Assembly: GCA_016182555.1 (NCBI GenBank)
Contig: JACPGJ010000004.1
Span: forward strand, 78,751 to 142,750
DNA: 64,000 nt
Reading direction: 5' to 3'
DNA from: Candidatus Kerfeldbacteria bacterium
GTDB lineage: Bacteria; Patescibacteriota; Patescibacteriia; UBA9570; XYC2-FULL-38-9
The position numbers and the translations under genes were made by a program. The stretch's first letter is position 1, and each line of letters begins with the position of its first letter. Shown here one piece after another: positions 3,868 through 61,745 of the stretch. The notes under the pieces were generated by a model. That model saw only the letters and a program-made list of their open reading frames with translations, was not told where the DNA came from and searched no databases.

Positions 3868-6084
3868 ATGCCCACTCCTGTCTCGACATCTCCGTGGTTT
3901 GCCTTTCCACCAGATCAGCCCAGGTATCCTGTACTCAAAAAAGAGCTTTCTGCTGATGTGGTAATTCTTGGCGGCGGAATTGTTGGTGTAATGACTGCCT
4001 GGGAGTTAGCCAAACATGGAATGTCGGTAGTCGTGGTAGAAAAAAATGTCATCGCTTCTGGAGATACGGGTCTGACAACCGCCTTCCTCAGCCGTGTTCC
4101 AGACACATCGCTACCTGCCATAGCAAAACGGTACGGGCAAGGTATGGTGAATGCATTATTGAGCGCAACAAGCAGCGCACAGGAATCCCTCTTTAACACG
4201 ATTGAGCAAGAACAGATTGATTGTGATTTTGATCGCTGCAGGTCCTATACCTATTCCTATGAAGCCGGTGATAAACGAATGGATGACTTGTGGGCTGTTA
4301 TTCAACAAGCAGATAAACGAACTCAACGGGTGAATGCCACACATGCGGAAGCAACTGGTGCGCCCATAGCCGACGCCGTGTGTATGGAAAATGAAGGACG
4401 ATTTCACATTCGCAAATTTTTATTTGGTTTACTTGAACGACCACAAGCAAAAAAAATACACATCTTTGAAGAAACGGAAGCAACGGCTGTAACGGTCAAT
4501 GAACATGGAGTGATTGTGACCACACCACATGGCGCAGTGCGTGCAAAAAAACTCATTGTAACGACCGGGTTACCGCATGATGCATTTGCCGAATTGCGCC
4601 CGCTGTTTACCCATGTGCTCACCTATGTCATGTCGGTGCAGTTTGAAAAAAAAGTTCCGATTTCTGATGATTTATTCTGGGATATTCACCACCCGTATTT
4701 TTACTATCGAAGGCTAGATGACCATACGATGATTCTGGGTGGAGCAGATACCGAAGTCGCCACCATGGATCCAACACAAAAACCGTTCGCTGAATTATCA
4801 CGTTTTGTGACGAAATATTTTCCCGAAAAAAGCCACGTGACTCATACCTGGTCTGGAAGCCTCTTCTTGACCGAAGATGAATTACCGTATATCAGCGAGC
4901 ACCCACACTATGCTGATCGAGTGTATGTGGCGAGTGGTTTTTCTGGTAATGGCATGGTCATGGGCGCTATGGCCGGAACCATATTAGCAGACCTCGTTCG
5001 TCATGTTGCCAATCCTTACGCTACACTATTTTCGTTTACGCGAACTGGAATCCACATACCAAAACCGCAACCCTACCCGAGCGCATCTTCTCAACAACAT
5101 AGCCGCCAAAAAACACCACTCGTGCTGAAACGCTTCTTTCAAATACTGATTCCGCTATTCTATATTGCCATACTCATTCTGCCTGGATATCTCTTTTTCA
5201 CAAGTCGCGGTGGTCTTTCATTTCTTAATGGGTTAGAACCACCTATTGTGCTGTTGCTCATTTTTCCGCTTGTTGGTTTATACGCATTTACGATCTTGTG
5301 GGCACAATTTATGATGGGAACGAATATGCCCTATTTACGTCGTCTATTTCCGTGGATTCTTCGGGCCCATATTACCCAAGGCATTTTTGTGTTGTTATTT
5401 GCCCTCGCGCATCCACTCTTGCTGATCAACGGTATTGGATTCACCTCATATGTACATTATGAATTTGTAGGAAAAAAATTGATTCCGTATGCGGTTCTTG
5501 GTCAAATAAGCGTATTCATTTTAATGCTTACTATAGCAACTGGACTATTGCGCAAATCCAAATGGTTGCAAAATAAATGGTGGTATATTCACTTGTTGAA
5601 TTACGCACTCTTTGTATTCACCTGGATTCATTCGTGGAATATTGGGAGTGATACCCAAATCGGCAATATGAAATATCTGTGGTTATTTTTTGGAACCACG
5701 GGCGTATTGTCTATTCTGGTGCGGATTGGTCGAGCGCTACGGAAACGATTTCCAAAAACCGTATCTTCGGAAAAGCATGAAACATTTACCCGCGTCGCTA
5801 GTATCGGCGATGTTGTTGAAGGGAAGCCGCTGTGCGTTTCGTTCAATGGACGGAAAGTGGCATTATTTCATGTTGGTGACTACTACTATGCTATTGATAA
5901 TACTTGCACGCATGCTGGCGGGCCAATCTGCGAAGGCAAAATGGAAGGAACGACAGTGCAATGCCCGTGGCATGGCGCCAAATTTAATGTGACTACCGGT
6001 GAAGTGGTTGGCCCACCGGCAAAAATGCCACTAAAAAAATACCACGTCCGCGTTCGAGGCAACGATATTGTAGTGCGTCTTTAA
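3868..6084 (+). CDS. Three-domain fusion: FAD-dependent oxidoreductase (DadA/DAO-like), polytopic His-containing membrane domain, C-terminal Rieske [2Fe-2S] domain
   Basis: Rossmann fold [18 protein letters not shown] and DAO-type C-terminus [10 protein letters not shown]. About 6 TM helices follow, with conserved His (AHPLLL, WIHSWN). Rieske box [11 protein letters not shown]...CPWHGAKF. Confidence 0.6.
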
Positions 6085-6614
6085 AAAAGAAGAAATTTAA
6101 TTCCCATCAGTATCAACACTATTCCACCAAAAATTTCCGCTTTACTTTCTAACCATGTTCCACTCTGTTTTCCAATAAAAACACCACCCACACTAAAGAC
6201 AAAGGTAGTTGTTCCGATGACAAGACACGCGATATACGGATTGATTGCCAGTAACGTAAAACTGAAACCCGCAGCCATGGCATCAATGCTCGTAGCGATA
6301 GCAAGCATGAGCATGACTTTATTCGTCACATGCGAAATATCTTCTTCAATACCCTCTTGCAAACCTTCATAAAGCGTTTTTGTACCAATAAGAACCAATA
6401 AACCAAAAGCGACCCAGTGGGTATAGGCCTCTATCCAACCGAGAACACCCTTGCCGCCCAGATACCCAATGAGTGGCATAAAAGCTTGAAAAACACCAAA
6501 AAATACTCCTGCTTTGATTGCTTGATTTACTCCGTTTTTCTTGGCACCCAAACCAATAGATACAGCAAATGCATCCATGCTGAGCGCGATGGCGAGAATA
6601 ATAACTTCAAACAT
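6081..6614 (-). CDS. mntP: Manganese efflux pump MntP (DUF204 family)
   Basis: [11 protein letters not shown] at the N-terminus and the duplicated SIDAMAAG half. Length and TM pattern match MntP/YebN. Confidence 0.8.
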
Positions 6615-6700
6615 AGTGTTTTATGGTTTTTTTAAAAACCTCTGCAAAAATTATTCACGACTCATGATAGCCATTTTGATATTTCGTTATTCACCTCCAC

Positions 6701-7522
6701 TCAGGTAAAACTGATATTAACGCCCAAATCATTCAACAAGCTTAGACTAGCAGTTGCTGTTTTATTATGCAAATCTTTTTCCTCATGCCAAGCAGATACA
6801 GAAATAGCAACAATATTTCTGTTCGCCAATGATTCGAAAAGGGCTTTCATGTCTGAAAAACTTGGGCCGGATTTTACATGATATTTGAGAGCTGGCATTT
6901 CTTTTTCAGCATCAACGACGTCTGTATCCCAATGAAAATATATGCTTTCGTCTTGTCGTGGAAGATGTTTGGAGATATCCGCAATACGACATCGCGTTAC
7001 TTTTGAATTTTGCAACGCCTCCTTTTCTCCTGGGTCGAGATCTCGCCCATCAGCAAGAACGATTTGACCTTCGGGATAAGGTTTTAGCCCGGCCATCTCG
7101 ACGATTCGCTGGTCACCTCGTCCCACAAGCATCGCTAAAGGCATCCCACCGATATACTTTGTTTGTGTTGTTTCCCAAGTATGAAAATCGCCATGAGCAT
7201 CGAGCCAAAGTATTCGTTCTGGTTGTTTTCCAGCTTTTTGTAATCCAGCAAGTACACCGAGCGTCGAGACGCAATCTCCGGCGATACTTACCGGAATAAA
7301 ATCATCATTTACCATTTCTTTGATTTTTTCGGAAAGGAGGAAATATATTTTAGCCATTCTTTGAATCTTTTCGTCTGAGTTTGGAAGGATCACCTCTCTG
7401 CATTCAGGTACTTCCAGCACTTCCCAGGGGTTATAATCAATATCGCGAACACGGCAAAGCCCATCTCGCCACTGTCCCATTAAGAACGGTGTTATTATTT
7501 TTCGATACTTTTTCATAACCAT
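6701..7522 (-). CDS. Arginase/agmatinase/formiminoglutamase (ureohydrolase) family protein
   Basis: Motifs AGDCVS (GGDHS-like), LDAHGDFHTWETT (DAHxDxxT) and HWDTDVVD (SxDxDxxD) in the canonical order. Confidence 0.55.
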   Translation of the reverse strand: MVMKKYRKIITPFLMGQWRDGLCRVRDIDYNPWEVLEVPECREVILPNSDEKIQRMAKIYFLLSEKIKEMVNDDFIPVSIAGDCVSTLGVLAGLQKAGKQPERILWLDAHGDFHTWETTQTKYIGGMPLAMLVGRGDQRIVEMAGLKPYPEGQIVLADGRDLDPGEKEALQNSKVTRCRIADISKHLPRQDESIYFHWDTDVVDAEKEMPALKYHVKSGPSFSDMKALFESLANRNIVAISVSAWHEEKDLHNKTATASLSLLNDLGVNISFT

Positions 7523-8745
7523 GTTTCGGAATCCATTTTATATGCAAGCAAAGCCATCATTTCCCTAACTTCCTTTTGCTCTCCGATTTTGAGCATCTGC
7601 TTTTCTCTTTTTAACCAACGCCTTGCTTTTGGAGTTTCTATAGCCATTACAACGGGGAGGCTTATGGATCCTAACTCCCGTAAACCGAGGTAAGTAGTAA
7701 TTTGTTTTATCGTCTCTTTCGGTTCTGATAAGACTTGTTCAAAAGAAATTTGCAACTTCGACACTTTACTTTCAAGAATGGCCTCATGGGCAGACAGCCA
7801 TTGATTAAGACAAACATCTTCTAGCCTCGCGGTTGTGAATTCTTGCCAATTTGGAGGCAGATCAAACTTCCACCAATGCTTACCAAATTCAACCAAATCA
7901 GAATAACCCTTAATGTTCAAAGATATTCCCGCCCCTTTTAAATTGTGAGAAAAGAATCCTACCGGCGAGAGCCAACCATCCATAAGTCCGTTGACAGATT
8001 GAGCGTATCCACGAGTCAAGTGAATATATTTTATTTCAGCGTTTGGAAAAATTTGTTCGTACATCCCGATTCGGTATGCATCCGGAGGTGTTTTAAAAAG
8101 TAATGTTTTGTTTTCTACATCATCAGCTGTAAACGATCTTGCATAAAGTCGGGGGACAACAAAAGGTGGCTCCTCGATTTTCAACTCATCGAAAAAAAGT
8201 TTTGTGTCGGAAACTGTATAACCGTCGTAATAGCTCATTCTCCACGGTGAATTTCTAAAGATTTTCCTGAGAATGAGCTTTTGTAATTCTTTTTCTTCCT
8301 TAATATCCGATGCTTTTATTTTAGTGAAAACGCTATCGAGTAATTCGATAAGCTCTGCGTGTCCTTCTGTTCCAGAAAAGACTGCTGGGAATTGCAAAAG
8401 CAACCTCTTTTCCCAACGCTTCTTTAGAATCTCCGATGGAGGCAAATCTTCGAATGGTATCGTGAGGCCATCAAGGATATTACTGGCTAATTCATTTTTG
8501 TTCGATAAAATTTCGATCGCATCACTATTCGAGTTATAGCCAAATCCGTTTCTTGATAGGGTAAGGAGTGGTTCTATTTCTCCATCGAGGGAAGCAATGT
8601 CAGAATGCGTCCTCAAAATGCTTTTTACCAGACTCGATCCAGAACGTGGGCTCGTCAAAATAACTGCAACTTTTTTAACCGATTCGTTCAAGTTTGAATC
8701 AGAGACGTTGCGAAGCGCATTTATTTTTTTGATAAGGTCATCCAT
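7513..8745 (-). CDS. Hypothetical P-loop protein, possibly sulfotransferase-like
   Basis: VAVILTSPRSGSSLV resembles the PAPS-binding 5'-PSB motif of bacterial sulfotransferases. Weak; the rest is unassigned. Confidence 0.3.
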   Translation of the reverse strand: MDDLIKKINALRNVSDSNLNESVKKVAVILTSPRSGSSLVKSILRTHSDIASLDGEIEPLLTLSRNGFGYNSNSDAIEILSNKNELASNILDGLTIPFEDLPPSEILKKRWEKRLLLQFPAVFSGTEGHAELIELLDSVFTKIKASDIKEEKELQKLILRKIFRNSPWRMSYYDGYTVSDTKLFFDELKIEEPPFVVPRLYARSFTADDVENKTLLFKTPPDAYRIGMYEQIFPNAEIKYIHLTRGYAQSVNGLMDGWLSPVGFFSHNLKGAGISLNIKGYSDLVEFGKHWWKFDLPPNWQEFTTARLEDVCLNQWLSAHEAILESKVSKLQISFEQVLSEPKETIKQITTYLGLRELGSISLPVVMAIETPKARRWLKREKQMLKIGEQKEVREMMALLAYKMDSETWL

Positions 8746-8749
8746 AGTA

Positions 8750-9421
8750 TTATCTCGGCTTCAAGACAAACGCATAAAATACTTTTCCATCGGCAGACTG
8801 GCGACCGATTACTTTAATGGAAAATCTCGCCGCTTTTGCCAGTGTTTTTATCTCTTCTATCGCTCCGAAATTAGATTGAGCGAAATATATTCTTCCTTTT
8901 GGTCTAAGGTGTTTTCTTACCTCTTTAAAAAACTGTTTATTCGTTTTTAAACCGGTATCCCATTGAGATTTAGCCACTACATCGTGTGCCCGTTTATTTC
9001 TGAAAGGAAGATTTGCTGTAATAACATCAAATTGTTCTTTTCCAATGTTTTCAAAAAGGTTGGAGCGTTTGACCACAATCATTTTTTCGAAACCGTGCAT
9101 TTTAGCATTATGGCGCGTGCTCTTGATGGCCGCAGGATTTATGTCCACTGCGACAACTTTTTCCGCACCCCGATAACAAGCAAAAATGGCGATAACACCA
9201 GAACCCGTGCCCATATCCAAAACATGTTCGCCCTTTTTGATTTTGAAGTTTTTCACAAGAGGCTGGCTATCTCTAAACGGCCAAAACGTATTTTTATACA
9301 CGACAAATGTCTTTCCAAGGTACTGGATTATTTTTCCTTGAGCAGATACTGCCTTAAACATGCGTTGTCTCTCCTGCTGCCACTCATCTATTTTTGAGAT
9401 GTTTTTAGGCATGTACACCAT
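8750..9421 (-). CDS. Class I SAM-dependent methyltransferase (small MTase domain, HemK/RsmC-like)
   Basis: Motif I VLDMGTGSGVIAIF and motif IV-like ITANLPF. Confidence 0.55.
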   Translation of the reverse strand: MVYMPKNISKIDEWQQERQRMFKAVSAQGKIIQYLGKTFVVYKNTFWPFRDSQPLVKNFKIKKGEHVLDMGTGSGVIAIFACYRGAEKVVAVDINPAAIKSTRHNAKMHGFEKMIVVKRSNLFENIGKEQFDVITANLPFRNKRAHDVVAKSQWDTGLKTNKQFFKEVRKHLRPKGRIYFAQSNFGAIEEIKTLAKAARFSIKVIGRQSADGKVFYAFVLKPR

Positions 9422-15904: not shown

Positions 15905-16013
15905 AAACTGGCAGCGACCTACTTTCACCCGAAAGCTATCATCGGCGCTAAAGAGCTTAACTGCTGTGTTCGGAATGGGAACAGGTGTGACCTCTTTGCT
16001 AGAACCACCAGAA
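15905..16013 (-). rRNA. rrf: 5S rRNA
   Basis: Reverse complement contains CCTGTTCCCATTCCGAACACAGCAGTTAAGC...GCCGATGATAGC...AGTAGGTCGCTGCCAG. Confidence 0.8.
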
Positions 16014-16564: not shown

Positions 16565-17331
16565 ATTCTGTTACTTTGCTAACCACATCAAGTACGGTGA
16601 GTGCGCGGTGGTGGATTGATGCGAATCAATCTCTGCATGTCGCCATGCAGTTCGGACTATATCTTTATCGCAGTTATTACTGCGACGTTTCGCGTATAGT
16701 CTCTGAGGATTCTACGATACGTATCAGATCTTGTTGCGCAACCTTTCTTCGCTTACCAGAGTCGTTCATCTGATACGCTGTTGTGATAATGCCTTTTGCA
16801 CCAACACCAGTTTGGTGTTTCCCTTCATTCATCATGTGCACTACTTTTGCAAAGAATTGAAAATCCTTAGCTTTCATAGTACGTAATGAATACTGTTGAA
16901 AGAATGGAATGATGCGTTTGAGCAAATCATCACGATTGCGGACAACATACACGTATGTATGATCTGTTTTGCTTCCACGATGGTTGACTTTGATATATCC
17001 GCATTGAAAAAATTGTTGCAATTCTTCCAATACGATTTTTGATGGGGAATTTTGTGATACATGAAATTCCGGTATCACTTTCAATTGTGTTTTCATCCGT
17101 TCATCTTTATACAAAGCGATATGAAAACTTCCTTCTCCATCTACCAAACCAACGATATACCATGGATGCGGTAATCGTAGCCTTTCCTGCTGGTTGTCTG
17201 CACTCAACACATTTTCACTTGCCATAATTGAATTATAGCAGAGTAGTGTGAGATTCACGAGTCCTCTATTTCTCCAATAGGACTCTTCAGAGTTTCCAGC
17301 ATATAGCGAAATTTATAGACAGCACAAATCT
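16565..17331 (-). mobile_element. Putative group I intron in 23S domain V (near E. coli L2593) carrying a homing endonuclease ORF
   Basis: The conserved exon block GATAGGGACCGAACTGTCTCACGACG is split by about 767 bp. The flanks rejoin into canonical 23S sequence. Confidence 0.7.
16677..17258 (-). CDS. LAGLIDADG homing endonuclease (intron-encoded)
   Basis: YIVGLVDGEGSFHI motif. The ORF lies wholly inside the intron on the rRNA strand. Confidence 0.8.
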   Translation of the reverse strand: MNLTLLCYNSIMASENVLSADNQQERLRLPHPWYIVGLVDGEGSFHIALYKDERMKTQLKVIPEFHVSQNSPSKIVLEELQQFFQCGYIKVNHRGSKTDHTYVYVVRNRDDLLKRIIPFFQQYSLRTMKAKDFQFFAKVVHMMNEGKHQTGVGAKGIITTAYQMNDSGKRRKVAQQDLIRIVESSETIRETSQ

Positions 17332-17375
<44 letters not shown>

Positions 17376-17953
17376 TGGCGAACAGCCAAACCCTTGGGAG
17401 CTGCTTCACCCCCAGGATGCGACGGGCCGACATCGAGGTGCCGAACCTGGTCGTCTATGTGAGCTATTGGACCAGACTAGCCTGTTATCCCCGGAGTAAC
17501 TTTTATCCGATGAGCTTCCGCCGTCCTATTTCGTACGGTCGGATCACTAAGTCCTACTTTCGTAACTGCGCGACTTGTAGGTCTTGCAGTAAAGCTGGCT
17601 TGTGCCTTTACACTATCGGTTCGATTTCCATCCGAACCTAGCCAACCTTTGTGAACGCCTCCGTTACCTTTTAGGAGGCATCCGCCCCAGACAAACTACC
17701 CACCAGACACTGTCCCCTCGCCGGATTCACGGCTAAAGGTTAGATATATCAATCCGTCAGGGTGGTATCTCACTGGTGACTCTGGAAGCGCCGAAGCGCC
17801 CCTTCAAAGTCTCCCACCTATACTGAGCAAACAAATTCATATACCAATCCCAAGTTGTAGTTAAGCTTCACGGGGTCTTTTCGTCATGCTGCGGGTAGCC
17901 AGCATCTTTACTGGCCCTGGAATTTCGCCGAGTCCCTCGTTGAGACAGTTTTC

Positions 17954-18006
<53 letters not shown>

Positions 18007-18007
18007 C

Positions 18008-18264
18008 AAATATTACATCACATTTTTAATAAAATGTCAATGTCTTCTTTCGAAGCTGCATATCGCTATGCAGATTGGACTATATCTTCTCTAAATAATT
18101 AGAGTTTGGCGTGTAGTCTCTGAGGATTCTTGCTTTCAATCAAGAAAACAAGTCTTTCCTGCTGATTGTCTGCACTCGACGCATTGTCACTGATATAAAT
18201 CAGTAGCGCGAGATACACAGATATTCCAGCATATAGCCAAATTTTACTAAGGCAGCATTTTTCC
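18008..18264 (-). mobile_element. Putative ORF-less group I intron at 23S L1931-like site
   Basis: Interrupts GGAATTTCGCT|ACCTTAGGAC. Shares conserved core elements with the other two introns (CTGCATATCGCTATGCAGxTxGGACTxTATCTTC and TAGTCTCTGAGGATT). Confidence 0.55.
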
Positions 18265-18274
18265 ACCTTAGGAC

Positions 18275-19039
18275 GATTCGTATTGTTACTCTTTTGAGGA
18301 GTCTCCGCATAGTACTACGGAACTGCATATCGCTATGCAGGTCGGACTCTATCTTCTTCGTTCTCTTCTTTATGAAGAGCGATGTCTAACGTATTAGTCT
18401 CTGAGGATTTTCTTGGCAGAACTGTTCATAGTCCTGTAATGCATATTTCCGTGTTCTTCCTTTCCCTTCATTTAGCTTTTCTCGTAATTCCATAATCTGC
18501 TGCAAACCATCACGCTCAAGATGTCTCTTATTCGTAACGAGTTGTGCAATTTGTTTGAAGATCATGAAATTTCGTTGTTTTTTCTGAGAACAAAAAGTAA
18601 ATCGTTCAAAAAAAGGAATGACCCTTTCCGTGATCGAACGCGGATTCACAACGACGTAATAATATACGCCGTCTTTTCTTGATTGAAGACGCCCACACCC
18701 GAGCAATTTTTTAAATTGCGCAAGAATGTATTCTTCCTTTTGAGAAACATTAAAACATAATTCTGTTTGCCAACCTATTTGATGATCTGGTCGTTTACGT
18801 ATGGATACGTTAAAACTTCCTTCACCATCAGTAAAGCCTGCAAAATAATGTCCCTTCTCTGGAGGAATGGTCTTCAACCATTCTTCTATTGTTGGTTGCA
18901 TATGTTCAAGAATCTTTCCTGCGGATTGTCTGCTGCTCTGGCATAGAGCTGATCATTGATTTTTACTGCCGTTTCAAACGACGAGTACAACGATATTAAG
19001 CAGAGTTTCCCGCAAATAGTTAGATTTTATAACTACAAT
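18275..19039 (-). mobile_element. Putative group I intron at 23S L1921/1923-like site (helix 69/71 junction) carrying a homing endonuclease ORF
   Basis: Splits GGAC|CGTTTTTATAGTTATCGCC (E. coli GGACCGTTATAGTTACGGCC). Separated from the previous intron by an approximately 10-nt exon. Confidence 0.65.
18386..18901 (-). CDS. LAGLIDADG homing endonuclease (intron-encoded)
   Basis: FAGFTDGEGSFNVSI motif. Contained within the intron. Confidence 0.8.
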   Translation of the reverse strand: MQPTIEEWLKTIPPEKGHYFAGFTDGEGSFNVSIRKRPDHQIGWQTELCFNVSQKEEYILAQFKKLLGCGRLQSRKDGVYYYVVVNPRSITERVIPFFERFTFCSQKKQRNFMIFKQIAQLVTNKRHLERDGLQQIMELREKLNEGKGRTRKYALQDYEQFCQENPQRLIR

Positions 19040-20489
19040 CGTTTTTATAGTTATCGCCGGCGTTCATCCGCGCTTCAGTTGCAAGCTTCGCCCCGAAGGG
19101 CTAACCCGCTTCCTTAACGTTCGGACACTGGCCAGGCATCAGCCCCTATACTTCAGCTTACGCTTTCGCAGGGACCTGTGTTTTTGGTAAACAGTCGCTT
19201 GAAATCTTTTACTGCGGCCTTGATTGCTCAAGGCAGGCCTTATCCCGAAGTTACGGCCGTTGTTTTGCCGAGTTCCTAAACGAGGGTTCTCTCGTACGCC
19301 TGAGGATACTCTCCTCGCCCACCTGTGTTGGTTTACGGTACGGTTACCATAGATCACGCGTGCGCACCTTTTCTTGGCCCATTGTCAACCTGTCTTGAGC
19401 TTGGGTTTCCCCGTACTCTTGTCACACTGTTTTGCAACAGCGCAAATGCCCCAGTCCATGAGGGCACACACACCTTCAACATGCGTCAGTACGCACAAAT
19501 CTATGGTAGGGACGGAATATTAACCGTCTGTCCATCGACTACGCCTTTCGGCCTCGCCTTAGGACCGCCTAACCCTAGGTCGATCATCGTTGCCCAGGAA
19601 TCCTTGGGCTTACGGCGTCATTGATTCTCACAATGATTTTTGCTACTCATGCCGACATTTTCGCTTCGCTACGCTCCATCGGCCCTCACGGGTCCAACTT
19701 CATTGCGGTAGCAAATGCTCCTCTACCGATTGTTCATCATAAATGATGAAGCAATCCCACAGCTTCGGTACTCTGTTTAGCCCCGTTACATTTTCGGCGC
19801 AAAGTAACTCGACCAGTGAGCTATTACGCTTTCTTTAAAAGATGGCTGCTTCTAAGCCAACTTCCTGGTTGTTTGAGTCACGATACCACCTTTAACACTT
19901 AACAGAGTTTAGGGACCTTAGCTGGTGATCTGGGCTGTTTCCCTTTTGACGTGTGAAGCTTAGCCCCCACAGTCTGACTTCGATAATAGTCTCTTCCGGC
20001 ATTCGGAGTTTGGTTAGGCAGGATATCTTGCGACTCCAAGCCCATTCAGTGCTCTACCTCCGGAAGGTAGTTTATCAAGCTATCCCAAAAGATATTTCGA
20101 GGAGAACCAGCTATTTCCGAGTTCGATTACAATTTCTGCGCTAACCACAGCTCATCCCCAGGCGTTACACGACCTGTGGGTTCGGGCTTCCCCTACCTGT
20201 TACGGCAGGTTCACCCTGGCCATGGCTAGATCACTCGGTTTCGGGTCTATAACGAACGACAATAATTCTACTCAATACTGGTTTGCGGCAAAGCCGCACC
20301 CAGTATTAAATAGAAAATCGCGCTATTCACACTCGGTTTCCCTATGACTTCTCCCTATGCGGGATTAATCGTGCCGTTCGTAATAACTCGTCGGCTCATT
20401 CTTCAATAGGCACACCGTGACACAGCCTTGCGGCCGTGCTCCGATTTATTGTAAGCACATGGTTTCAAATACTATTTCACTCCCCTTCC

Positions 20490-20532
<43 letters not shown>

Positions 20533-21343
20533 ATCATTATACGTATTTAGCCTTACCGCATAGTCGCGGCAGATTCACATAGGATTTCTCGTGTCCCATG
20601 CTACTTGAGGACAGAAACCATAGAGTAAGTGTGCATTTCATGTACGGGGCTATCACCGTCTTTGGCTAGGCATTCCAGCCTATTCTATTACACACACTTC
20701 TTTTTTCTCTATCTCCGGTAAACCGGAACGTCTCTGCCTCGCAACCCCACAAATGATTTAAAAAATTACTCATGGTTTGGGCTTCTCCCCGTTCGTTCGC
20801 CACTACTAAGGGAATGCAATTGTTGTTTCTTTTCCACCAGGTACTAAGATGTTTCAGTTCCCTGGGTCTACTCCTATACGCCTATGTATTCAGCGCATGG
20901 TTCTGCAGGTGTACTGCAGAGGGTTGCCCCATTCGGATATTCCCGGATCAAAGCTTGCTTGTCAGCTCCCCGAGACTTTTCGCAGACTGCTACGTCCTTC
21001 ATCGTCGTATAATGTCAAGGTATCCACCATATGCTCTTACTTCCCGACGCAAAGTTGATACTCTTGCGTCTAATCATTGTAGTTGTATCAGTATCTTCGC
21101 ACAATTTGGATTCGACGAAATTTTGATGTTGTCCTCTATGCGCAGGATGGGGCATAGAGAACGTCTGTATCTTCTATATATATGGCGCATGGCGTTAATA
21201 TGCCCATATATCAATTGATGTCTTTGAGAATATTCACTTGTCAATGAACAGGTGTGCTGAAACGGTGACTAATACAGTATTTTCAGCACAGATCTACCGC
21301 TCGTTGTTTGCGTGGAGGCAGGTCTGCGATGAAAATGGGGCAC

Positions 21344-21856: not shown

Positions 21857-23355
21857 TTAATACGCTCGAGCAAAGATAACTTGCTCAGAGGTTGCCGCAT
21901 TACAAATCATACACTTGCCATTTTGTTGCTGTTTTTCAAATGGAATACACCGAATAGTGGCTTTTGTTTCTTCTTTGACACGTGTTTCGCATTCCGCACT
22001 GCCACACCACAACGCCAAAAAGAACCCACCAGTTTCAATTTGTGTTTTGAAGGTTTCATAGGAATCCACCGTTACTGTACGTTCTTGTAGTCGCTGCTGT
22101 GAACTTGCAAATAGGGCTTTTTGCATCGCTTCAAGAACTGTGGAAATTTCTGAAGCCACCTGGTCAATTGCCACCGACTTTTTCTCGCCGGTATCACGCC
22201 GAGCCATCATCACCTGGTTCTGTGCCAAATCGCGTGGGCCAATTTCTATACGTACCGGCACACCCTTTTTCTCCCAGCCATATACTTTTGTGCCGAATGT
22301 TTCATAATCGCGAGCGTCTATATGCACACGAACACCAACGTGCTGCAACTGTTCACGCAATGCACTCACCTGTTCCATAACCGCTGCTTTCTCTTCTTCT
22401 TTTTTCCAGAGTGGCAACACCACCACTTGATACGGCGCGATTTCCGGAGGCAATACCAAACCCTTGTCATCACTGTGGGACATAATCAGTGCACCCATCA
22501 AACGGGTGCTTACTCCCCAACTCGTCATCCAACAATATTGTTGTTGGTTGTCTTGATCTAAAAATTTCACTTCAAATGCTTTGGCAAAATTCTGTCCCAA
22601 ATTGTGCGACGTTCCCGATTGCAATGCCTTGCCATCTTGCATCATGGCTTCAATGGTATACGTGCGCAGTGCTCCGGCAAACCGTTCAGATTCCGATTTT
22701 TCACCTGGTATCACTTCCATAGCCAGAACTTCTCGCGCAAACCACGCATACATATCTAACATTTTTCGTGCTTCCTCTTCGGCGTCAGCTTCTGTAGCGT
22801 GTGCAGTGTGTCCTTCTTGCCACAAAAATTCGCTGGTGCGTAAAAACAATCGCGTTCGCATTTCCCAACGCACCACATTTGCCCATTGGTTAATGAGCAA
22901 TGGCAAATCACGCCACGATTTAATCCAACGTGCAAATGCTGCATGAATCACGGTTTCAGAAGTTGGCCGCACAACCAATTCTTCCTCTAATTTCGATTCC
23001 GGGTCAACCACCACTCCTTCACCATTCGGGTTATTCATTAACCGATGATGCGTCACCACCGCGCATTCCTTCGCGAATCCTTCCACATGTGTTGCTTCAC
23101 GACTCAAAAACGACTTGGGAATAAACATTGGAAAATACGCATTCTGATGACCGGTTTCTTTAATTTTGTCGTCGAGGATGTGTTGCATCCGTTCCCATAT
23201 CGCATATCCGTAGGGTTTGATAATCATGGTGCCTTTCACATCACCATGTTCGGCTAAATCTGCAGCGGCAATAATATCTAAATACCACTGCGCATAATCT
23301 TGCGCGCGGGAGGTGATGGATTGTGCGTGTTGTGCTCGGGTGTGTTGAGTGACCA
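21857..23355 (-). CDS. proS: Prolyl-tRNA synthetase, archaeal/eukaryotic-like class II type with C-terminal zinc-binding domain
   Basis: Class II core motifs and a C-terminal CGSAECE...C..C zinc domain. The N-terminal 101 codons of the listed ORF are probably not translated (start MVTQHTRAQ at 23355). Confidence 0.85.
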
Positions 23356-23456
23356 TGCTTGTACTATACGTTGATGGATATTTTTTTTCAAGATGGGACA
23401 CACATTGACGATATTGTTCGTTTCTTCTATGGTGGGGAAAGAATAACAACCAACGT

Positions 23457-25697
23457 ATGCGCAAATATCTCTTTTTTTCTTTTATATTCGTGCTTTTTTT
23501 TACTGTGACGCCTACGGTTTCTGCGCAAGTATGTCTTAACCCATTAGATGAAACCATTGAAACAATCGACATCGGCACCGCCGTGGGTCTAGAAATAGCA
23601 ACAGGAACAACAGAAACAGAAACTAATGATGTCGTTGGTTCGTGTGGTGGGGATGACATGCCTGATGTGGCATTTTTATGGACAGCACCTTACGATGGAG
23701 AATACCAAATAGATACAGAAGGGTCATACTACAATGTGCTCATGTATGTCTTAGATAGCAATTCATGTTCAACGGCAATAGAGTTAGCTTGTTCAGACAA
23801 TTATGCGTCATCTACGTTCATTTCTTCGGTCAATATTACCGCTGTTACCGGTCAACAATTTATTATTGTGATCGATGGCTATTATGATCCTGCAGAAGGT
23901 GACCCGACTTTTGGGAAGGGGGCGTATGATTTGAACATTGAGCTCCTGCATGACCTGGATGAAGATGGATATGTGCATGTTGATTACGGTGGTAATGATT
24001 GTAATGATTCAGATCGAAATGTGCATCCGGGAGTGGCAGATGTCTATAATAATGAAGATGATGATTGCGATGGAACGGTGGACGAAGATAAGGTAGATGG
24101 TGATAGTGATGGGTATTATGATGGATATATACTTGATGCGGACTGTAATGATAGTGATGTAACTATTCATCCGAATGCCTCAGAAGTTGTGTATGATGGT
24201 ATTGATCAAGATTGTGATGGAATAGATGACTTCGATATGGACAATGATGGGTATGGTATTGATACTGTTACAACGGGTTATGACTGTAATGATAGTGATG
24301 TGACTATTCATCCGAATGCCTCAGAAGTTGTGTATGATGGTATTGATCAAGATTGTGATGGATTAACAGATGAAGATGATACGTTTGTTCTTTCTTCGGC
24401 CACGCCGGTTGCTGTTCCACCAGATGATGCATCGACTCCTGAGGTAGAAACCACGGGTACGACAAGCGTAACCTTTACTATTGATGAGAGTTACCCTATT
24501 ACGGATATTGATCTTCTTTTGGATATTACCCATACATATCTGAGCGATTTACAGATGCGGCTCATTTCTCCGCAGGGAACATCTGTATATCTGAGCTATC
24601 AAATATTGATGTCCGGAGAAGAATTGAATCAAATAGTATTTGATGATGCGGCCTATCGGAATATTGATGATGCCAGCACTCCTGCTTCTGGTGCTTTTCA
24701 ACCAGTTGAGCCACTTGCATTATTGAATGGTGAAATGAGTGCTGGCACTTGGACATTGGAGATTATAGATGTGGGTCAAGCTGATTATGGCACATTAAAT
24801 GAATGGGCACTGCGCATGAGTGTGGATACGGATGAAGATAATGATACCTATTTTACTACTCCCATGAGTGGTTCAGATTGTGATGATCATAATGCCCAAG
24901 TATATCCTGATGCAACGGAGATTCTTGATGGTATTGATAATAACTGTGATGGGGTGGTCGATAATATTATTGAAGTGCCCTCGGATCCGCCAATAGAAAC
25001 GCCCGTGGAAACACCGGCATCGGAAAACAATACCACCGTTGATGCCAATGAACCACCACCAAGTAATGAAACGCCCGGTGAAAATACGGAAAATGAATTA
25101 CCGGTAGAAAATGATGAGTCAGATGATGCGACTACTGGTACAAATACTTCGAAAGCGGAAACGATTTTTGTGACAACATTACGCCCAACGAAAAGAGGCG
25201 TTCGGGTATGGTATTCCAATGACACCTCTCATGTATTCAAGCTATTTAAACGTCGTGGGAAAAAACGTACGCGCCTGATAATCATGAACGATCGTTTGGC
25301 AATGGTTGTTCACGCTAATGGCAAACACGGAGTATTATTTCAATATGTGAAAGGGAAGATACGTTCTCGAAAAAAACTTTCTTCATTACGAGCAAAAAAT
25401 ACTCGTATAAAGAATGTTCGCATAAAGAAAAAACGATATATTGTTGTGACGGCAAAAAAGAAAAGGAAGATGCAGGCCAGTCTTTCTATTCTTCGCGTGA
25501 AAATGAAAAAAAAGCGGCTGGGCAAAGTTCGATTTATGGTGCTTCATCATGCAAAAGCAAAAAAAATCGCTCCAAAAAAAACGCGTATTCATAAACGATT
25601 TATCTATCTACGCAACAAACACGCCCATCGTTTATTTAGATTGAAATTCAAGAAAACAAACCGTTTATTCTTATTGCCAAAAAAACGCTCCTCCTAA
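23457..25697 (+). CDS. Secreted multi-domain protein: signal peptide, PPC-like domain, five or more MopE-type metal-binding repeats, proprotein-convertase P-domain, acidic linker, approximately 150-aa polybasic tail
   Basis: Signal MRKYLFFSFIFVLFFTVTPTVSA. Repeats CNDSDxxxHPxAxExxDGxDxDCDG. P-domain DIDLLLDITHTYLSDLQMRLISPQGT...GTWTLEI. C-terminus about 35% K/R. Confidence 0.6.
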   Translation: MRKYLFFSFIFVLFFTVTPTVSAQVCLNPLDETIETIDIGTAVGLEIATGTTETETNDVVGSCGGDDMPDVAFLWTAPYDGEYQIDTEGSYYNVLMYVLDSNSCSTAIELACSDNYASSTFISSVNITAVTGQQFIIVIDGYYDPAEGDPTFGKGAYDLNIELLHDLDEDGYVHVDYGGNDCNDSDRNVHPGVADVYNNEDDDCDGTVDEDKVDGDSDGYYDGYILDADCNDSDVTIHPNASEVVYDGIDQDCDGIDDFDMDNDGYGIDTVTTGYDCNDSDVTIHPNASEVVYDGIDQDCDGLTDEDDTFVLSSATPVAVPPDDASTPEVETTGTTSVTFTIDESYPITDIDLLLDITHTYLSDLQMRLISPQGTSVYLSYQILMSGEELNQIVFDDAAYRNIDDASTPASGAFQPVEPLALLNGEMSAGTWTLEIIDVGQADYGTLNEWALRMSVDTDEDNDTYFTTPMSGSDCDDHNAQVYPDATEILDGIDNNCDGVVDNIIEVPSDPPIETPVETPASENNTTVDANEPPPSNETPGENTENELPVENDESDDATTGTNTSKAETIFVTTLRPTKRGVRVWYSNDTSHVFKLFKRRGKKRTRLIIMNDRLAMVVHANGKHGVLFQYVKGKIRSRKKLSSLRAKNTRIKNVRIKKKRYIVVTAKKKRKMQASLSILRVKMKKKRLGKVRFMVLHHAKAKKIAPKKTRIHKRFIYLRNKHAHRLFRLKFKKTNRLFLLPKKRSS
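24141..24361 (+). repeat. Near-identical tandem duplication inside the MopE-repeat gene (two approximately 90-bp copies, 1 mismatch, 141-bp period)
   Basis: GACTGTAATGATAGTGATGT(A/G)ACTATTCATCCGAATGCCTCAGAAGTTGTGTATGATGGTATTGATCAAGATTGTGATGG occurs twice. Confidence 0.7.
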
Positions 25698-26883: not shown

Positions 26884-27588
26884 CTATGCCTCGTTGTTCT
26901 GCATCAAGCGCAACAAAAACAACGTTTCGCTTTTCAATTTCGTTTTCGCCCAGGCTTTTTGTTTTGGGTCAAGAAGTTCACCCATGCCATCTAAAATTTT
27001 TGTGTCATCAAATTTTTCCAGCTTCACAATACATTTTTCTAAAAATTCTTTAAACGACAACCCCGACCGTTGCTCAACGAGCTGTGTATTGATTTCCCAA
27101 TTATTTTTTGCAAAAAACCACACATCAAAAATATCGCGATTTGATCTACCCATACGCTCAAACATCGCCATCAACTTATTCGCAAACATATCTTCTTGAA
27201 TCATGACCAGTAACGAAATGCCCATATACGATTTCAGTTCATACCGCGATCCAAAATTTCGTCGGTTAATTTCAACTTTCACATTCTGCGCATCTGTTTT
27301 TTTGCCATAATACGAAACGAGATAAAATAGATTGAACCGTTTTTTTTCTGCATTTTTGATGTTGCCAAATTGCTTTAAAATTTGTTCAACGCGTGCAAAT
27401 ACCTGGTCCTCTTTCGCCGAATCAAGCAAGTCAAAATCCAGATCAACCGAGTGACGATTCAATCCATAAAATAGATACGCCGCCGTACCACCCTTGAATC
27501 CTAAAAATGGACCAATAGTGTTGTCGGAATAAATTGCGGTCAATATTTGAATGAGAACACTTTTGTGAGTAGCGGGGTTGAGAACCAT
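26884..27588 (-). CDS. AbiEii/AbiGii-family nucleotidyltransferase toxin (type IV TA, abortive infection)
   Basis: GGTAAYLFYGLNRHSVDLDFD nucleotidyltransferase motif. Immediately downstream of an AbiEi-like gene. Confidence 0.7.
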   Translation of the reverse strand: MVLNPATHKSVLIQILTAIYSDNTIGPFLGFKGGTAAYLFYGLNRHSVDLDFDLLDSAKEDQVFARVEQILKQFGNIKNAEKKRFNLFYLVSYYGKKTDAQNVKVEINRRNFGSRYELKSYMGISLLVMIQEDMFANKLMAMFERMGRSNRDIFDVWFFAKNNWEINTQLVEQRSGLSFKEFLEKCIVKLEKFDDTKILDGMGELLDPKQKAWAKTKLKSETLFLLRLMQNNEA

Positions 27589-27591
27589 AAT

Positions 27592-28176
27592 TTATTTCGT
27601 CGCTTGATAATAATCATAATATTTTTGCACAGTCTTCACCATTTTTTTATTTTCATACAGAGGAAGTAGTGCAAATACTTTTTCCCAATCCAATGGAGAA
27701 AGATTGTCGAAATAATAATCTTTACTTCGGTAAATCGTATCAAGAAAAGCACGTTCCGTTATTGCTATTGGGTATTGTTCGCTTTGATCAATACCCGCAG
27801 GGTTGATAAGTGTGTCGAATTTGATTGTACGAAATGCGTATTCTTGTCCGTCGCAGATGATATCACGATTCACATAAGAAGCGACAAAAATTTGGCCGTA
27901 ATATTGAAAGGTGATACCCGCTGCACCAAGAACAGTTTCAAAACTGATATATGCTGGGCGAAGAATATTTGTTGCAAGTTCATATCTACTATATTCATAA
28001 TCTTTTGCATACACACCTTTGCGTACATGAATCAACTTTCCACTTTTTATATAAGAATGCAAACGAACACGAGCAGCGTTCATGCTTTTTTCGCGCCACA
28101 ATAACGCAATATCTTTGGTGGTAAAGATCGTTTTTGGCGAACGAAGCAGTATATCTAAATAATCCCCTCTCTTCAT
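27592..28176 (-). CDS. AbiEi-family antitoxin / transcriptional regulator
   Basis: wHTH N-terminus with the RKGVYA motif. 3-bp spacing to the cognate toxin. Confidence 0.6.
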   Translation of the reverse strand: MKRGDYLDILLRSPKTIFTTKDIALLWREKSMNAARVRLHSYIKSGKLIHVRKGVYAKDYEYSRYELATNILRPAYISFETVLGAAGITFQYYGQIFVASYVNRDIICDGQEYAFRTIKFDTLINPAGIDQSEQYPIAITERAFLDTIYRSKDYYFDNLSPLDWEKVFALLPLYENKKMVKTVQKYYDYYQATK

Positions 28177-28305: not shown

Positions 28306-29151
28306 CTACAATTTTTCTTCAACTTCTCTTAAGATGATTTCTTTCATGTGCACACCAATGTTTTTACTAAATTGTTCATCTTCTATAAACGCTGCTAAAT
28401 CAAGCTGAATACTACGCGTATCAACCTTCCTCACTATCTCCAGCAACCGCTTTTTTAACTCGCTCAAATTTTCTATTCCCTGAATACACTCCATATTCGG
28501 TTGTACGCCTTTTTGCAAATACCACATCAAGTCAAAATAATCTCTGCCTTTTACGGTAATAATTGTTTTCCCCGATCGGTCTGTCTTCTCCCATTTGCGA
28601 TTCAACACCGCATTTATTTTTGACGCCATGAGTGTGGGCAAATCAAATGTCCGCACAATAATAGATTTATTTTCTATAAACAACGGCATGAATTGCATTT
28701 GATATTTTGGGCAATAATCAAATACCGGACAAATTTCTACTTTCACAAACAACTGGTCAGATTCACTGGCATCAGCCGCCCCCAGCTCATGCAAAATATC
28801 GAATTTCACATAGATACGAAATTTTTGAATTTTTGTTTTTACGCGCACATCGGTGTTCTTCGCAAAAAAGTGTTCAATGTCCTTTGCGAGCGTTGGTAAC
28901 GAAATACTCGCATTCATATCTACAAAATCTAAATCTTCTGACAATCGGGGCAGGCCAAAACAATGCGCTAAACAGGTACCGCCATAAAAATATAATTCAG
29001 TATATGGCGGTGTTGAATACAAAAAATCTAACAACAAAATTTGCAAATAGCGCTTGAGCTTATTTTTTGTGAATGCGGCATTGTGCGTACCAGATTCATG
29101 AATAATAGCACGCAAATTCGCCAATGTATTTTCCATAGATTTAATTTTCAA
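28306..29151 (-). CDS. AbiEii/AbiGii-family nucleotidyltransferase toxin (second copy)
   Basis: FYGGTCLAHCFGLPRLSEDLDFVD. Confidence 0.7.
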   Translation of the reverse strand: MKIKSMENTLANLRAIIHESGTHNAAFTKNKLKRYLQILLLDFLYSTPPYTELYFYGGTCLAHCFGLPRLSEDLDFVDMNASISLPTLAKDIEHFFAKNTDVRVKTKIQKFRIYVKFDILHELGAADASESDQLFVKVEICPVFDYCPKYQMQFMPLFIENKSIIVRTFDLPTLMASKINAVLNRKWEKTDRSGKTIITVKGRDYFDLMWYLQKGVQPNMECIQGIENLSELKKRLLEIVRKVDTRSIQLDLAAFIEDEQFSKNIGVHMKEIILREVEEKL

Positions 29152-29791
29152 TCATATATTTTCCGATATCTTGCAGGTGTTTTGACTGCGCTTGCTTGAT
29201 AAAGCTTCGAAATTCTTTTTTATCCTTTTGTGTCAGCTGATCGGTATTTATACGAAGCGCATCGATGGCGGTCGCATCAAAAAGCAGATGCTGTCGTAAG
29301 TAGAGAAAATCAAACAATGCTTTAGCTTTCGTTGCCTGTTGCACAGAGAAACCACCAATCATTTTTTTTGTGAACCCATGAAACAATCCGGACTTGATAC
29401 TGTGGTAGTTAAACTGACCAAACGCATTCTGGAATGTTTGCGTTTTTCGTGTGCTGATAGATGTGTAGTGCACCGGCATTTCGGTCAACAGATGATATTC
29501 AAACAACATATATTCCAGGCTCAAATATGACGGTTCATATAACAGATTTGCCAGGAATGATTTATACCCGTTGAAACGTTGTGTCTTTTCCAGTCTATCA
29601 ATATATTCGGGGGCAACGTAGAGCCCACGTTTTAATCGAACAAGTTTACCTTTTTTTGCATAACGCCCAAGAAGGATTTTGAGATACGTTGTATCCTGCT
29701 CTATGGGAGAAATATCTGCTAATGTAAAGGCTGGCAAATTTTTTACCACCTCATAAATTGTATGAATTCGTGAATTTCTATTGTTTCTCAT
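29141..29791 (-). CDS. AbiEi-family antitoxin (second copy)
   Basis: VRLKRGLYVAPEY motif. Overlaps the downstream toxin by 11 nt. Confidence 0.6.
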   Translation of the reverse strand: MRNNRNSRIHTIYEVVKNLPAFTLADISPIEQDTTYLKILLGRYAKKGKLVRLKRGLYVAPEYIDRLEKTQRFNGYKSFLANLLYEPSYLSLEYMLFEYHLLTEMPVHYTSISTRKTQTFQNAFGQFNYHSIKSGLFHGFTKKMIGGFSVQQATKAKALFDFLYLRQHLLFDATAIDALRINTDQLTQKDKKEFRSFIKQAQSKHLQDIGKYMIEN

Positions 29792-61441: not shown

Positions 61442-61745
61442 ATTAATAATTTAATTAAATTTATAGAAGTAGTAATAGTAATAATAAGGGCTGTGGAGAG
61501 AGTGGATAATTGATATAGTCGTTTATTTACGGATACGAAATAATTTTCTCTCTGTGCATGGGTGGTGGCGTTTTCAGGTGGATAGTGATTGAAAGAACTG
61601 TGGAGAAAAATTTTCAAACGGCTGACGAAAATTTGGGGGCGACGTTTAACACGTTTTATGAACAAGTTTTCCTAAATTATTTTTTGTTTTATACCTGCTT
61701 TACTCACTGTTTATTCACAGCTTACTCACGAAATGGCCGTAGTGT
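61442..61745. promoter_or_regulatory. Putative oriC: AT-rich unwinding element plus DnaA boxes in the dnaA-dnaN spacer
   Basis: TGTGGAGAGAGTGGATAAT (contains the TTATCCAC complement), GGTGGATAG, TTATTCACA, and a 45-nt A+T tract (TTAATAATTTAATTAAATTTATAGAAGTAGTAATAGTAATAATAA). Confidence 0.5.

Follow-up and report, generated by a model that had tools for sequence, protein, structure and literature searches.

We describe here a gene whose product joins three redox modules in one polypeptide: a DAO-type flavoenzyme, a histidine-bearing membrane domain and a Rieske [2Fe-2S] domain. It lies in the window, by which we mean the whole 64,000-nucleotide stretch analysed (contig JACPGJ010000004.1 of assembly GCA_016182555.1, positions 78,751 to 142,750), from Candidatus Kerfeldbacteria bacterium, a groundwater bacterium of the Candidate Phyla Radiation (CPR) with a tiny genome (roughly 1 Mb). 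The complete 738-codon open reading frame (ORF; 3868..6084, + strand, as are all features of the protein given below) runs from an ATG at 3868 to a TAA at 6082-6084 with no internal stop, and its 738-residue product is identical to NCBI MBI2410554.1, entered as 'MAG: FAD-dependent oxidoreductase [Candidatus Kerfeldbacteria bacterium]' (MAG, metagenome-assembled genome); the same gene is also present on an independently assembled Logan contig. A DAO-type FAD domain (residues 30-376, 3955..4995) is followed by six transmembrane (TM) helices (418-627, 5119..5748) and a Rieske-type [2Fe-2S] ferredoxin domain (640-738, 5785..6081), so that the order of flavoenzyme, membrane part and Rieske domain read in this gene by an earlier note is borne out both by Pfam and by the hydrophobic segments and modelled helices. 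In the Pfam scan DAO matches residues 30-376 over positions 1-353 of its 353 (E 5.7e-53) and Rieske matches residues 642-725 (E 1.1e-17), and the AlphaFold2 (AF2) model of the full protein, calculated from a 40-sequence alignment, has a mean predicted local distance difference test score (pLDDT) of 90.4. The three domains are joined by two flexible linkers, the first K/R-rich at its end (residues 401-417, 5068..5118; pLDDT <50 for 405-415, five K/R) and the second a short K/R-rich tether of the Rieske domain (residues 628-639, 5749..5784; pLDDT <50 for 628-637, seven K/R within residues 622-645).

The N-terminal domain covers the full length of the PF01266 model, as the earlier note had anticipated for DAO, and opens with a GGGIVG dinucleotide (FAD)-binding motif (3970..3987). 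Foldseek matches it to glycine oxidase, sarcosine oxidases, L-proline dehydrogenase and L-amino-acid deaminase (LAAD), with E-values of 1e-19 to 1e-21 and TM-scores of 0.75-0.82 at 15-21% identity, and the nearest solved relatives by sequence are the beta subunit of the Pyrococcus L-proline dehydrogenase (1y56_B) and Proteus LAAD. These nearest relatives are dehydrogenases, which give their electrons to other carriers rather than to O2, and the term 'oxidase' first applied to the domain is not supported; the Rieske/haem acceptor chain built into the same polypeptide likewise argues for a dehydrogenase rather than an O2-reducing oxidase at the flavin. The fold family suggests a substrate of amine or amino-acid type. 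The fusion protein reads WSGSLF where the Geobacillus kaustophilus glycine oxidase reads WSGIRP, the arginine of which is taken to bind the substrate carboxylate in ThiO.

The membrane part shows six helices by hydropathy, placed by AF2 at residues 418-446, 458-485, 497-523, 536-560, 565-592 and 601-627 (pLDDT about 90-94), and a model of this part alone reaches a pLDDT of 93.9 and a predicted TM-score (pTM) of 0.88. Two pairs of histidines are present, His501 (5368..5370) and His515 (5410..5412) in TM3 (i, i+14) and His575 (5590..5592) and His588 (5629..5631) in TM5 (i, i+13), the last within a WIHSWxIGSD motif that served to retrieve relatives. Their spacings of 14 and 13 are those of His101/His115 and His209/His222 of human NOX2, which bind the inner and outer haems of its ferric-reductase domain (FRD; PMC3591440). 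By this correspondence His501 (NOX2 His101) and His575 (His209) are candidate ligands of the inner, cytoplasm-proximal haem, and His515 (His115) and His588 (His222) of the outer haem. The suggestion that the paired histidines may bind b haem is strengthened by this NOX2-like spacing and by their invariance, described below, and a di-haem domain is predicted. PF01794, the ferric-reductase family, matches residues 470-585 with 21.4-23.1 bits (E 8e-5 to 3e-4) against a gathering score of 28, and it matches 21 of 24 TM domains of the family scanned singly (best E 1.3e-7), no other family recurring. Compared by Foldseek with the PDB, the TM-only model finds as its best folds STEAP1 and STEAP2 (TM-score 0.62), SpNOX (root-mean-square deviation 4.0 Å, 192 columns) and NOX5-TM; the analogous di-haem cytochrome b561 is also among the matches. 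The earlier note had proposed a ferric-reductase-like family for testing by profile search, and by the His spacing and these profile and modelled-fold matches the membrane part is identified as an FRD of the NOX/FRE/STEAP/YedZ superfamily. The Pfam scan finds no FAD_binding_8 or NAD_binding_6 in the protein, in which the Rieske domain follows the FRD instead. Identity with MsrQ was considered and rejected, as the TM domain has no NCBIfam match and carries four histidines, where Zhang et al. (2013) give three His plus Arg for the YedZ-type short forms (PMC3591440). No Oxidored_molyb (MsrP) gene is present in any annotated neighbourhood of the homologue loci.

The C-terminal domain is matched by PF00355 with 64.1 bits against a gathering score of 20.3, confirming the proposed Rieske assignment, and the motifs quoted for it are indeed present as C680-T-H-A-G-G and C699-P-W-H-G, the two cluster-binding loops being C680-T-H682 (5905..5913) and C699-P-W-H702 (5962..5973). 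Its sequence matches in the PDB are the ferredoxins of biphenyl (BphF, E 3e-18), naphthalene and carbazole dioxygenases (E 3e-18 to 3e-15), while matches to b6f Rieske proteins are weak (E 1e-7 or worse). The second cysteine of each loop in bc1/b6f proteins (CTHLGC / CPCHGS) is absent, the sequence reading CTHAGG and CPWHG. Rieske domains without these disulfide cysteines typically hold a low-potential cluster, and the domain is therefore predicted to be of the low-potential type, fit for one-electron relay from flavin to haem b.

Positive charges are unevenly distributed about the membrane, with K+R counts of 5, 3, 3 and 7 on the inner segments (pre-TM1, TM2-TM3, TM4-TM5 and post-TM6) against 1, 2 and 1 on the outer loops, and the N-terminus has neither a signal peptide nor a twin-arginine motif. 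The positive-inside rule and the even number of helices together predict an N-in/C-in arrangement in which both the DAO and the Rieske domain are cytoplasmic, and in which His501 and His575 occupy the inner membrane half and His515 and His588 the outer, as in NOX. The view of the protein as a self-contained trans-membrane module cannot be retained with both soluble redox domains on the cytoplasmic side: in this topology the outer haem would have to pass its electrons to an acceptor outside the polypeptide.

A search of 5.8 billion clustered proteins returned about 40 full-length homologues from CPR bacteria and DPANN archaea (682-778 residues, 36-50% identity, about 99% coverage), all with the same domain order. 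In the alignment of 40 sequences, with a mean column identity of 47%, the invariant residues include G35, G37 and G40 of the dinucleotide-binding motif, the four histidines H501, H515, H575 and H588, and C680, H682, C699, P700 and H702 of the Rieske loops. Mean column conservation is 0.56 in the DAO domain, 0.60 in the TM domain and 0.59 in the Rieske domain, falling to 0.18 and 0.23 in the first and second linkers; since conservation is similar in the three domains and lost in the linkers, the TM part is under constraint as a module with a function of its own, not just an anchor. This bears directly on the possibility of an artefact, in which a frameshift or mis-assembly has fused separate genes or in which the TM part is only an anchor with incidental histidines. 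A natural split does exist, a DAO ORF standing beside an FRD-Rieske ORF at one locus (L035), yet no interruption of the ORF is seen in two independent assemblies of the same organism or in at least 40 homologues from different lineages and projects. Frameshift and chimeric assembly are ruled out by the homologues from independent assemblies, which keep the order and every ligand, and incidental histidines are contradicted by their invariance in a TM domain conserved like the catalytic domains. The artefact, whose probability we consider negligible, is already refuted by these conservation data. The earlier note had suggested looking for the same fusion in related MAGs and had named a frameshift, an assembly error or unconserved His/Cys ligands as grounds for abandoning it; the fusion recurs, the ORF is intact and all ligands are invariant.

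The modules also occur in other combinations. A profile of the TM domain searched against 1.84 billion representative proteins found 82 clusters at E <= 1e-30 and 358 at E <= 1e-10, and of the 82 best matches 76 keep the four-His spacing, about 18 have the full fusion and 13 the FRD-Rieske form. Mapping of motifs and domains distinguishes five forms among the matches: the DAO-FRD-Rieske arrangement of the window protein (form A), a soluble DAO-Rieske protein of about 510 residues arranged like YhfW (form B), a permuted DAO-Rieske-FRD protein of about 750 residues, extended in some cases to about 900 by a seventh helix and a DM13 domain at the C-terminus (form C), FRD-Rieske (about 320-345 residues) and the FRD alone (205-260 residues). 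In the natural split form (L035) the separate DAO ORF overlaps the FRD-Rieske ORF by 4 nt. The Rieske domain is common to the DAO-containing and the FRD-containing forms, which matches expectation for a go-between. The FRD of form C aligns with that of the window protein with an hhalign probability of only 20%, yet in register, with Arg at the position of H501 and invariant His opposite H515, H575 and H588; NCBIfam MsrQ matches it at 3e-10, whereas the window FRD matches no NCBIfam family. The form-C FRD belongs to a lineage of its own, unlike that of form A, and the DAO-Rieske unit has thus been joined to two FRD lineages. The DM13-bearing permuted proteins (P0053, P0063 and P0067, about 900 residues, and L076 6001-8709) read DAO-Rieske-(MsrQ-like FRD)-seventh TM-DM13, with the DM13 domain predicted outside the cell, and one such protein comes from a Kerfeldbacteria MAG (MBI2427049.1). 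An unannotated 144-residue gene following the soluble form in Ryanbacteria was considered as a split FRD and rejected, as it has no His pairs.

A crude neighbour-joining tree of the DAO domain, computed without support values and to be read only as an indication, scatters B forms at several points among the A forms, gathers the C forms in one clade and sets the archaeal sequence among bacterial ones; the soluble CPR forms (P0042-P0046) are 46-47% identical to the window DAO domain. Such a pattern fits a membrane module that was gained, lost or exchanged more than once, and genes that passed between CPR and DPANN. The named bacterial carriers are Kerfeldbacteria, Saccharibacteria, Andersenbacteria, Curtissbacteria and 'Patescibacteria group', and the archaeal carriers are a Nanoarchaeia MAG, Candidatus Anstonella stagnisolia and another Micrarchaeota MAG. 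NCBI labels of Gammaproteobacteria and Actinomycetota on some carrier MAGs are unconfirmed, and we see in them no evidence of a wider host range. The archaeal homologue from Candidatus Anstonella stagnisolia (P0028 of locus L003, VVB58223.1) is annotated '3-phenylpropionate/cinnamic acid dioxygenase ferredoxin subunit', which looks like a misannotation made from the Rieske domain alone; its nesting looks like inter-domain transfer.

The neighbourhoods of these genes repeatedly place exported cupredoxins beside the FRD. Neighbouring ORFs were clustered over 31 loci, and 76 loci were then searched with a locally built profile; collapsed at 90% identity, the loci fall into 57 groups, and upstream sequence is usable in 45 of them. 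A cupredoxin gene lies on the same strand no more than 100 bp upstream, or overlapping, in 8 of the 45, and in the Anstonella locus (L003) it is adjacent and divergent, bringing the total to 9 of 45. The full fusion is present at three of these nine loci: L014, where the gap is 4 bp; L046/L077, where it is 82 bp, the adjacency in L046 being confirmed by the independent annotation of L077; and L003. The other six hold stand-alone FRDs. All the FRD-adjacent cupredoxins carry signal, lipoprotein or anchor sequences, and those beside the full fusions (L003, L014, L046) have complete type-1 H...C..H..M ligand sets. The association of FRD and cupredoxin is far above chance for so rare a gene class, although no more than a fifth of the loci show it and in the window organism it is loose; gene order round the fusion is otherwise not conserved among the loci.

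Cupredoxins are also found at greater distances and in other guises. The window organism encodes a 164-residue lipoprotein cupredoxin (lipobox LFVGAGC) 4.5 kb upstream of the fusion on the other strand (L001 5014-5508, -), 625-1119 bp before window position 1; it has a CuA-type motif, C-N-V-V-C-G-A-G-H-T-E-M (C-x3-C-G-x2-H-x2-M), matches Cupredoxin_1 at 5e-17 and COX2 at 1e-7, and stands alone, no cytochrome oxidase being visible nearby. A 336-residue anchored cupredoxin is encoded 1.8 kb downstream of a soluble form-B gene (L078), and a cupredoxin-domain protein 5 kb from a DM13-bearing form-C gene (L076). Four operon-linked cupredoxins, from three Saccharibacteria MAGs (L027 5296-5805, L028 6571-7017, L030 885-1313) and unlabelled metagenome contigs (L065/L066; L065 6033-6470), have no Cys, are His-rich (DPHPxHTDD ... 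WGYHxH) and membrane-anchored, and the gene of each runs into the start codon of an FRD gene of the stand-alone, four-His kind, whose stop is in turn overlapped by a glutamate dehydrogenase gene in L030 and L065. At one locus (L075 8234-13433) a form-C gene adjoins a complete copper-homeostasis cluster comprising a P-type ATPase with a CPC motif and HMA domain (CopA), small HMA proteins (CopZ), an HMA-DsbD_2 protein and a CsoR-type repressor. A general link to copper export through P-type ATPases was considered and rejected, as only this L075 enzyme has both the CPC motif and an N-terminal CxxC.

Taken with the observed domain order, ligand conservation, FRD fold and spacing, and recurrence of the modules, and with the predicted topology, the cupredoxin adjacency leads us to favour, with moderate confidence, a function for the window protein as a membrane-integrated dehydrogenase, modelled as a one-polypeptide electron conduit to an external cupredoxin, O2 or metal. 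The cofactors, the direction of flow, the order FAD to iron-sulphur (FeS) cluster to haem, the substrate and the acceptor that we infer are as follows. The cytoplasmic DAO-fold flavoenzyme would oxidise a small amine or amino-acid-type substrate, and the two electrons of its FAD would pass singly to the low-potential Rieske domain, tethered at the inner face by a linker of about ten residues. The Rieske domain would reduce the inner haem b (His501/His575), from which electrons would cross the membrane to the outer haem b (His515/His588) and leave for an extracytoplasmic acceptor, most likely, where one is encoded, a small exported cupredoxin; alternatively O2 or Fe(III)/Cu(II) would be reduced directly, in the manner of NOX, FRE and STEAP. 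Outward flow is favoured because potentials would fall from flavin and low-potential FeS cluster through haem b to a copper protein, because NOX and MsrQ work outward and because form-C relatives carry an extra domain on the outside.

The nature of the outer acceptor is where other explanations have to be weighed. Were the protein a NOX-like oxidase, its outer haem would reduce O2 to superoxide or H2O2 outside the cell with no partner protein, the DAO and Rieske domains replacing the NADPH/FAD domain, and its role would be electron disposal, O2 scavenging or the production of reactive oxygen against host or competitors. The four-His pattern is indeed that of the NOX/FRE 'long forms' and not of the three-His YedZ, SpNOX and NOX5-TM are among the best folds, and 80% of the loci have no adjacent cupredoxin. 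Moreover conserved residues are found on the outer membrane face, among them Arg447, which is nearly invariant. We had expected a docking site to make that face the better conserved and have dropped this claim, since the two faces are equal (0.60 vs 0.59); by the same token no outer reaction centre is singled out. As the recurrent operon link to exported cupredoxins and the external DM13 domain of the permuted form suggest a protein or metal acceptor, we regard a NOX-like oxidase as rather unlikely.

The cupredoxins could themselves be read otherwise, as metal-presenting proteins or chaperones of a reductase whose FRD acts on extracellular Fe(III)/Cu(II) for uptake or for the loading of cuproproteins. 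Ferric and cupric reductases are known among the relatives of the FRD, namely FRE and STEAP (PMC3591440), STEAP1/2 are the top folds, the Cys-less, His-rich cupredoxin-like proteins operon-linked in Saccharibacteria are atypical of electron carriers, and the permuted form at L075 adjoins CopA with its CPC motif, HMA chaperones and a CsoR-type repressor. The cupredoxins beside the full fusions, however, have the complete type-1 sets of ligands that are typical of an electron carrier, CPC is missing from the other P-type ATPases nearby, which reduces the copper-export link to a single locus, and extracellular Cu(I) is normally harmful, all of which makes a dedicated metal reductase improbable.

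Quinone is the usual acceptor of DAO-family dehydrogenases such as DadA and GlpD, and the haem domain might correspondingly exchange electrons with a membrane quinone, making the fusion an amino-acid:quinone oxidoreductase and the stand-alone FRD a quinol:cupredoxin oxidoreductase. Genes for UbiA (L002), UbiD/UbiX (L003) and a UbiE-like protein (L075) lie near three homologues; these Ubi-like neighbours recur at no other of the 76 loci, and a link to quinone biosynthesis as a general feature has accordingly been dropped. MsrQ, itself an FRD, has recently been reported to have a ubiquinone cofactor (PMC12525009), and some Patescibacteria have quinone-synthesis genes and a cupredoxin without complex III (PMC12931201), but quinone synthesis and electron-transport chains are absent from most CPR and DPANN (PMC7507113) and the four-His di-haem design suits trans-membrane transfer. 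We therefore judge coupling to quinone to be likewise improbable.

Several points weigh against the electron conduit that we prefer. Its cofactors are predicted from sequence and modelled structure. The PF01794 score of the query itself is below the Pfam gathering score, and when the TM domain was searched as a profile against the PDB sequences as a whole, nothing matched even at E 10; folds were compared instead, with Foldseek E-values that are weak (0.04-0.6). The DAO domain falls far under the cut-off of every curated NCBIfam subfamily: among the named subfamilies compared (ThiO glycine oxidase, SoxB, DadA, pipecolate oxidase and PuuB-like) the best is pipecolate oxidase at 100 bits vs 600, followed by ThiO at 80.7 vs 250.8 and DadA at 46.7 vs 383. 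No conserved neighbour gene indicates the substrate. Cupredoxins are not adjacent at 36 of the 45 informative loci, that of the window organism could be near the fusion by coincidence given its distance and strand, and as a group they are heterogeneous, comprising type-1, CuA-like and Cys-less His-rich proteins. Lastly, electron export dissipates membrane potential instead of building it, and the benefit would therefore be redox balancing, or reduction of O2, nitrite or metal, and not energy conservation.

Genes considered as clues to the substrate were dropped as inconsistent among loci: the arginase-family gene beside the window fusion; glutamate dehydrogenase, which overlaps stand-alone FRDs in L030 and L065 and is 5-7 kb off in four other loci; and the asparaginase-like and 2-hydroxyacid dehydrogenase genes of one Kerfeldbacteria clade. 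Together such neighbours point to amino-acid metabolism in a manner that is suggestive, not consistent. In the window the fusion stop is overlapped by 4 nt, on the opposite strand, by the gene of the manganese exporter MntP, the first of four genes (6081-9421, -), followed by an arginase-family gene (6701-7522), which could relate to an amine substrate though it is not conserved at other loci, a sulfotransferase-like gene (7513-8745) and a methyltransferase gene (8750-9421).

No respiratory complex is encoded among the genes of the window, as the earlier note had remarked, the remaining genes being housekeeping or mobile, although a 64-kb sample of roughly 1 Mb is a poor guide to the complete genome. 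They include dnaA, dnaN, polA, uvrB, the genes of prolyl-tRNA synthetase (ProRS), tyrosyl-tRNA synthetase and a class-A penicillin-binding protein, rRNA genes, AbiEii toxin genes and a transposase gene. The 23S rRNA gene (17297-21050, -) measures about 3.75 kb against a 2.9-kb model and contains a group I intron (18056-18297) and a LAGLIDADG ORF (18386-18901), with a second LAGLIDADG ORF (16677-17258) between its 3' end and the 5S rRNA gene (15906-16012, -); as there is no 16S rRNA gene within the window, the rRNA operon appears to be unlinked. A 746-residue protein (23457-25697, +) combines a proprotein-convertase P domain with four motifs of MopE type that putatively bind copper (PF11617, E 1.5e-38). 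The ORF as read shares about 200 nt with the 5' end of the convergent/divergent ProRS gene (21857-23659), and translation therefore probably begins further downstream. Nucleotidyltransferase toxins of AbiEii type are encoded twice (26884-27588 and 28306-29151, -), each gene with a partner ORF (27592-28176 and 29141-29791) that is presumably the antitoxin, and a Mutator-family transposase gene lies at 30232-31212. Close to the end of the window dnaN and dnaA stand side by side (60320-63197, -), which probably marks the vicinity of the chromosomal replication origin.

The conduit, if it exists, would matter most for the energetics of its hosts. CPR and DPANN are widely held to be without electron-transport chains (PMC7507113). 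In nitrite-reducing Patescibacteria, which have a cupredoxin and NirK but no complex III, a non-classical and as yet unidentified reductant of the cupredoxin was posited in 2025 (PMC12931201). The FRD family is a concrete candidate for this reductant: its predicted di-haem domain is largely confined to CPR and DPANN, is repeatedly found beside exported cupredoxins and, in the window protein, comes already fused to a flavin dehydrogenase and an FeS relay. We suggest, tentatively, that the four-His FRD may be the missing membrane link to the exported cupredoxins, and then to NirK or other copper enzymes, replacing complex III. If so, the fusion would be the one-protein 'input arm' of a minimal respiratory chain leading from an amino-acid-type substrate to an extracellular copper protein, and some lineages supposed to be purely fermentative would own an unrecognised membrane electron transport, shared between CPR and DPANN by horizontal transfer. 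Public annotation names one soluble domain only, as 'FAD-dependent oxidoreductase' or 'dioxygenase ferredoxin subunit', and metabolic reconstructions consequently overlook the membrane module.

The components of the fusion have parallels in characterised and catalogued proteins. YhfW of Bacillus subtilis is a soluble DAO-Rieske fusion of unknown function (PMC7317962), and YhfW-type proteins, among which we place the CPR forms P0042-P0046 (with YhfW likened to them by domain order), likewise have an N-terminal DAO and a C-terminal Rieske domain; they are about 500 residues long and have no membrane domain, whereas the window protein has a 210-residue, six-TM domain between the two. Proteus LAAD and the beta subunit of the Pyrococcus dye-linked L-proline dehydrogenase are, like its N-terminal domain, DAO-fold dehydrogenases that deliver electrons to a membrane cytochrome or partner subunit, but at 15-21% identity they use separate acceptor proteins, and LAAD has a single N-terminal anchor and no fused haem domain. 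An FRD architecture with Rieske and FMN modules, 'M4', was catalogued by Zhang et al. in 2013 (PMC3591440); here too a Rieske domain is fused to a bacterial FRD as an electron-transfer extension, with an FMN module described and not a DAO domain. The term 'DAO' is absent from the main text of that paper, and 'Rieske' and PF01266 from its supplements. In the literature searched, including papers on CPR/DPANN and Anstonella, we found no published description of a DAO-FRD-Rieske protein or of an FRD-cupredoxin operon. The earlier note did not recognise the domain order from characterised proteins, and in this it stands, although kindred fusions were known in YhfW (PMC7317962) and in FRD with Rieske (PMC3591440).

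The closest mechanistic comparisons are with other FRD proteins. MsrQ/YedZ, the haem-binding partner of MsrP, is a bacterial FRD that picks up electrons on the cytoplasmic side and delivers them to a separate redox protein in the periplasm, much as proposed here for the hand-off from FRD to cupredoxin; it differs in its three-His plus Arg pattern and its molybdoenzyme partner, and an MsrQ-like FRD belongs instead to the permuted DAO-Rieske-FRD relatives. The NOX/FRE 'long forms' (SpNOX, NOX5) share with the window protein the N-in, six-TM FRD, the four histidines of TM3 and TM5 at spacings of 14 and 13 and a similar fold, and they follow the same logic, a cytoplasmic flavin module feeding the inner haem and electrons leaving at the outer haem. 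Their donor, however, is of the ferredoxin-NADP-reductase type (FAD_binding_8/NAD_binding_6), while that of the fusion would be an N-terminal DAO domain acting with a C-terminal Rieske domain, which adds an FeS relay and dispenses with an NADPH site; sequence similarity between the two is sub-threshold only. The fusion may accordingly be viewed as a natural experiment in FRD modularity, in which a NOX-type haem domain would be driven, via a Rieske domain, by a DAO-fold dehydrogenase and not by NADPH. The building blocks and the modular extension of the FRD were already known; the combination of DAO, FRD and Rieske appears to be new.

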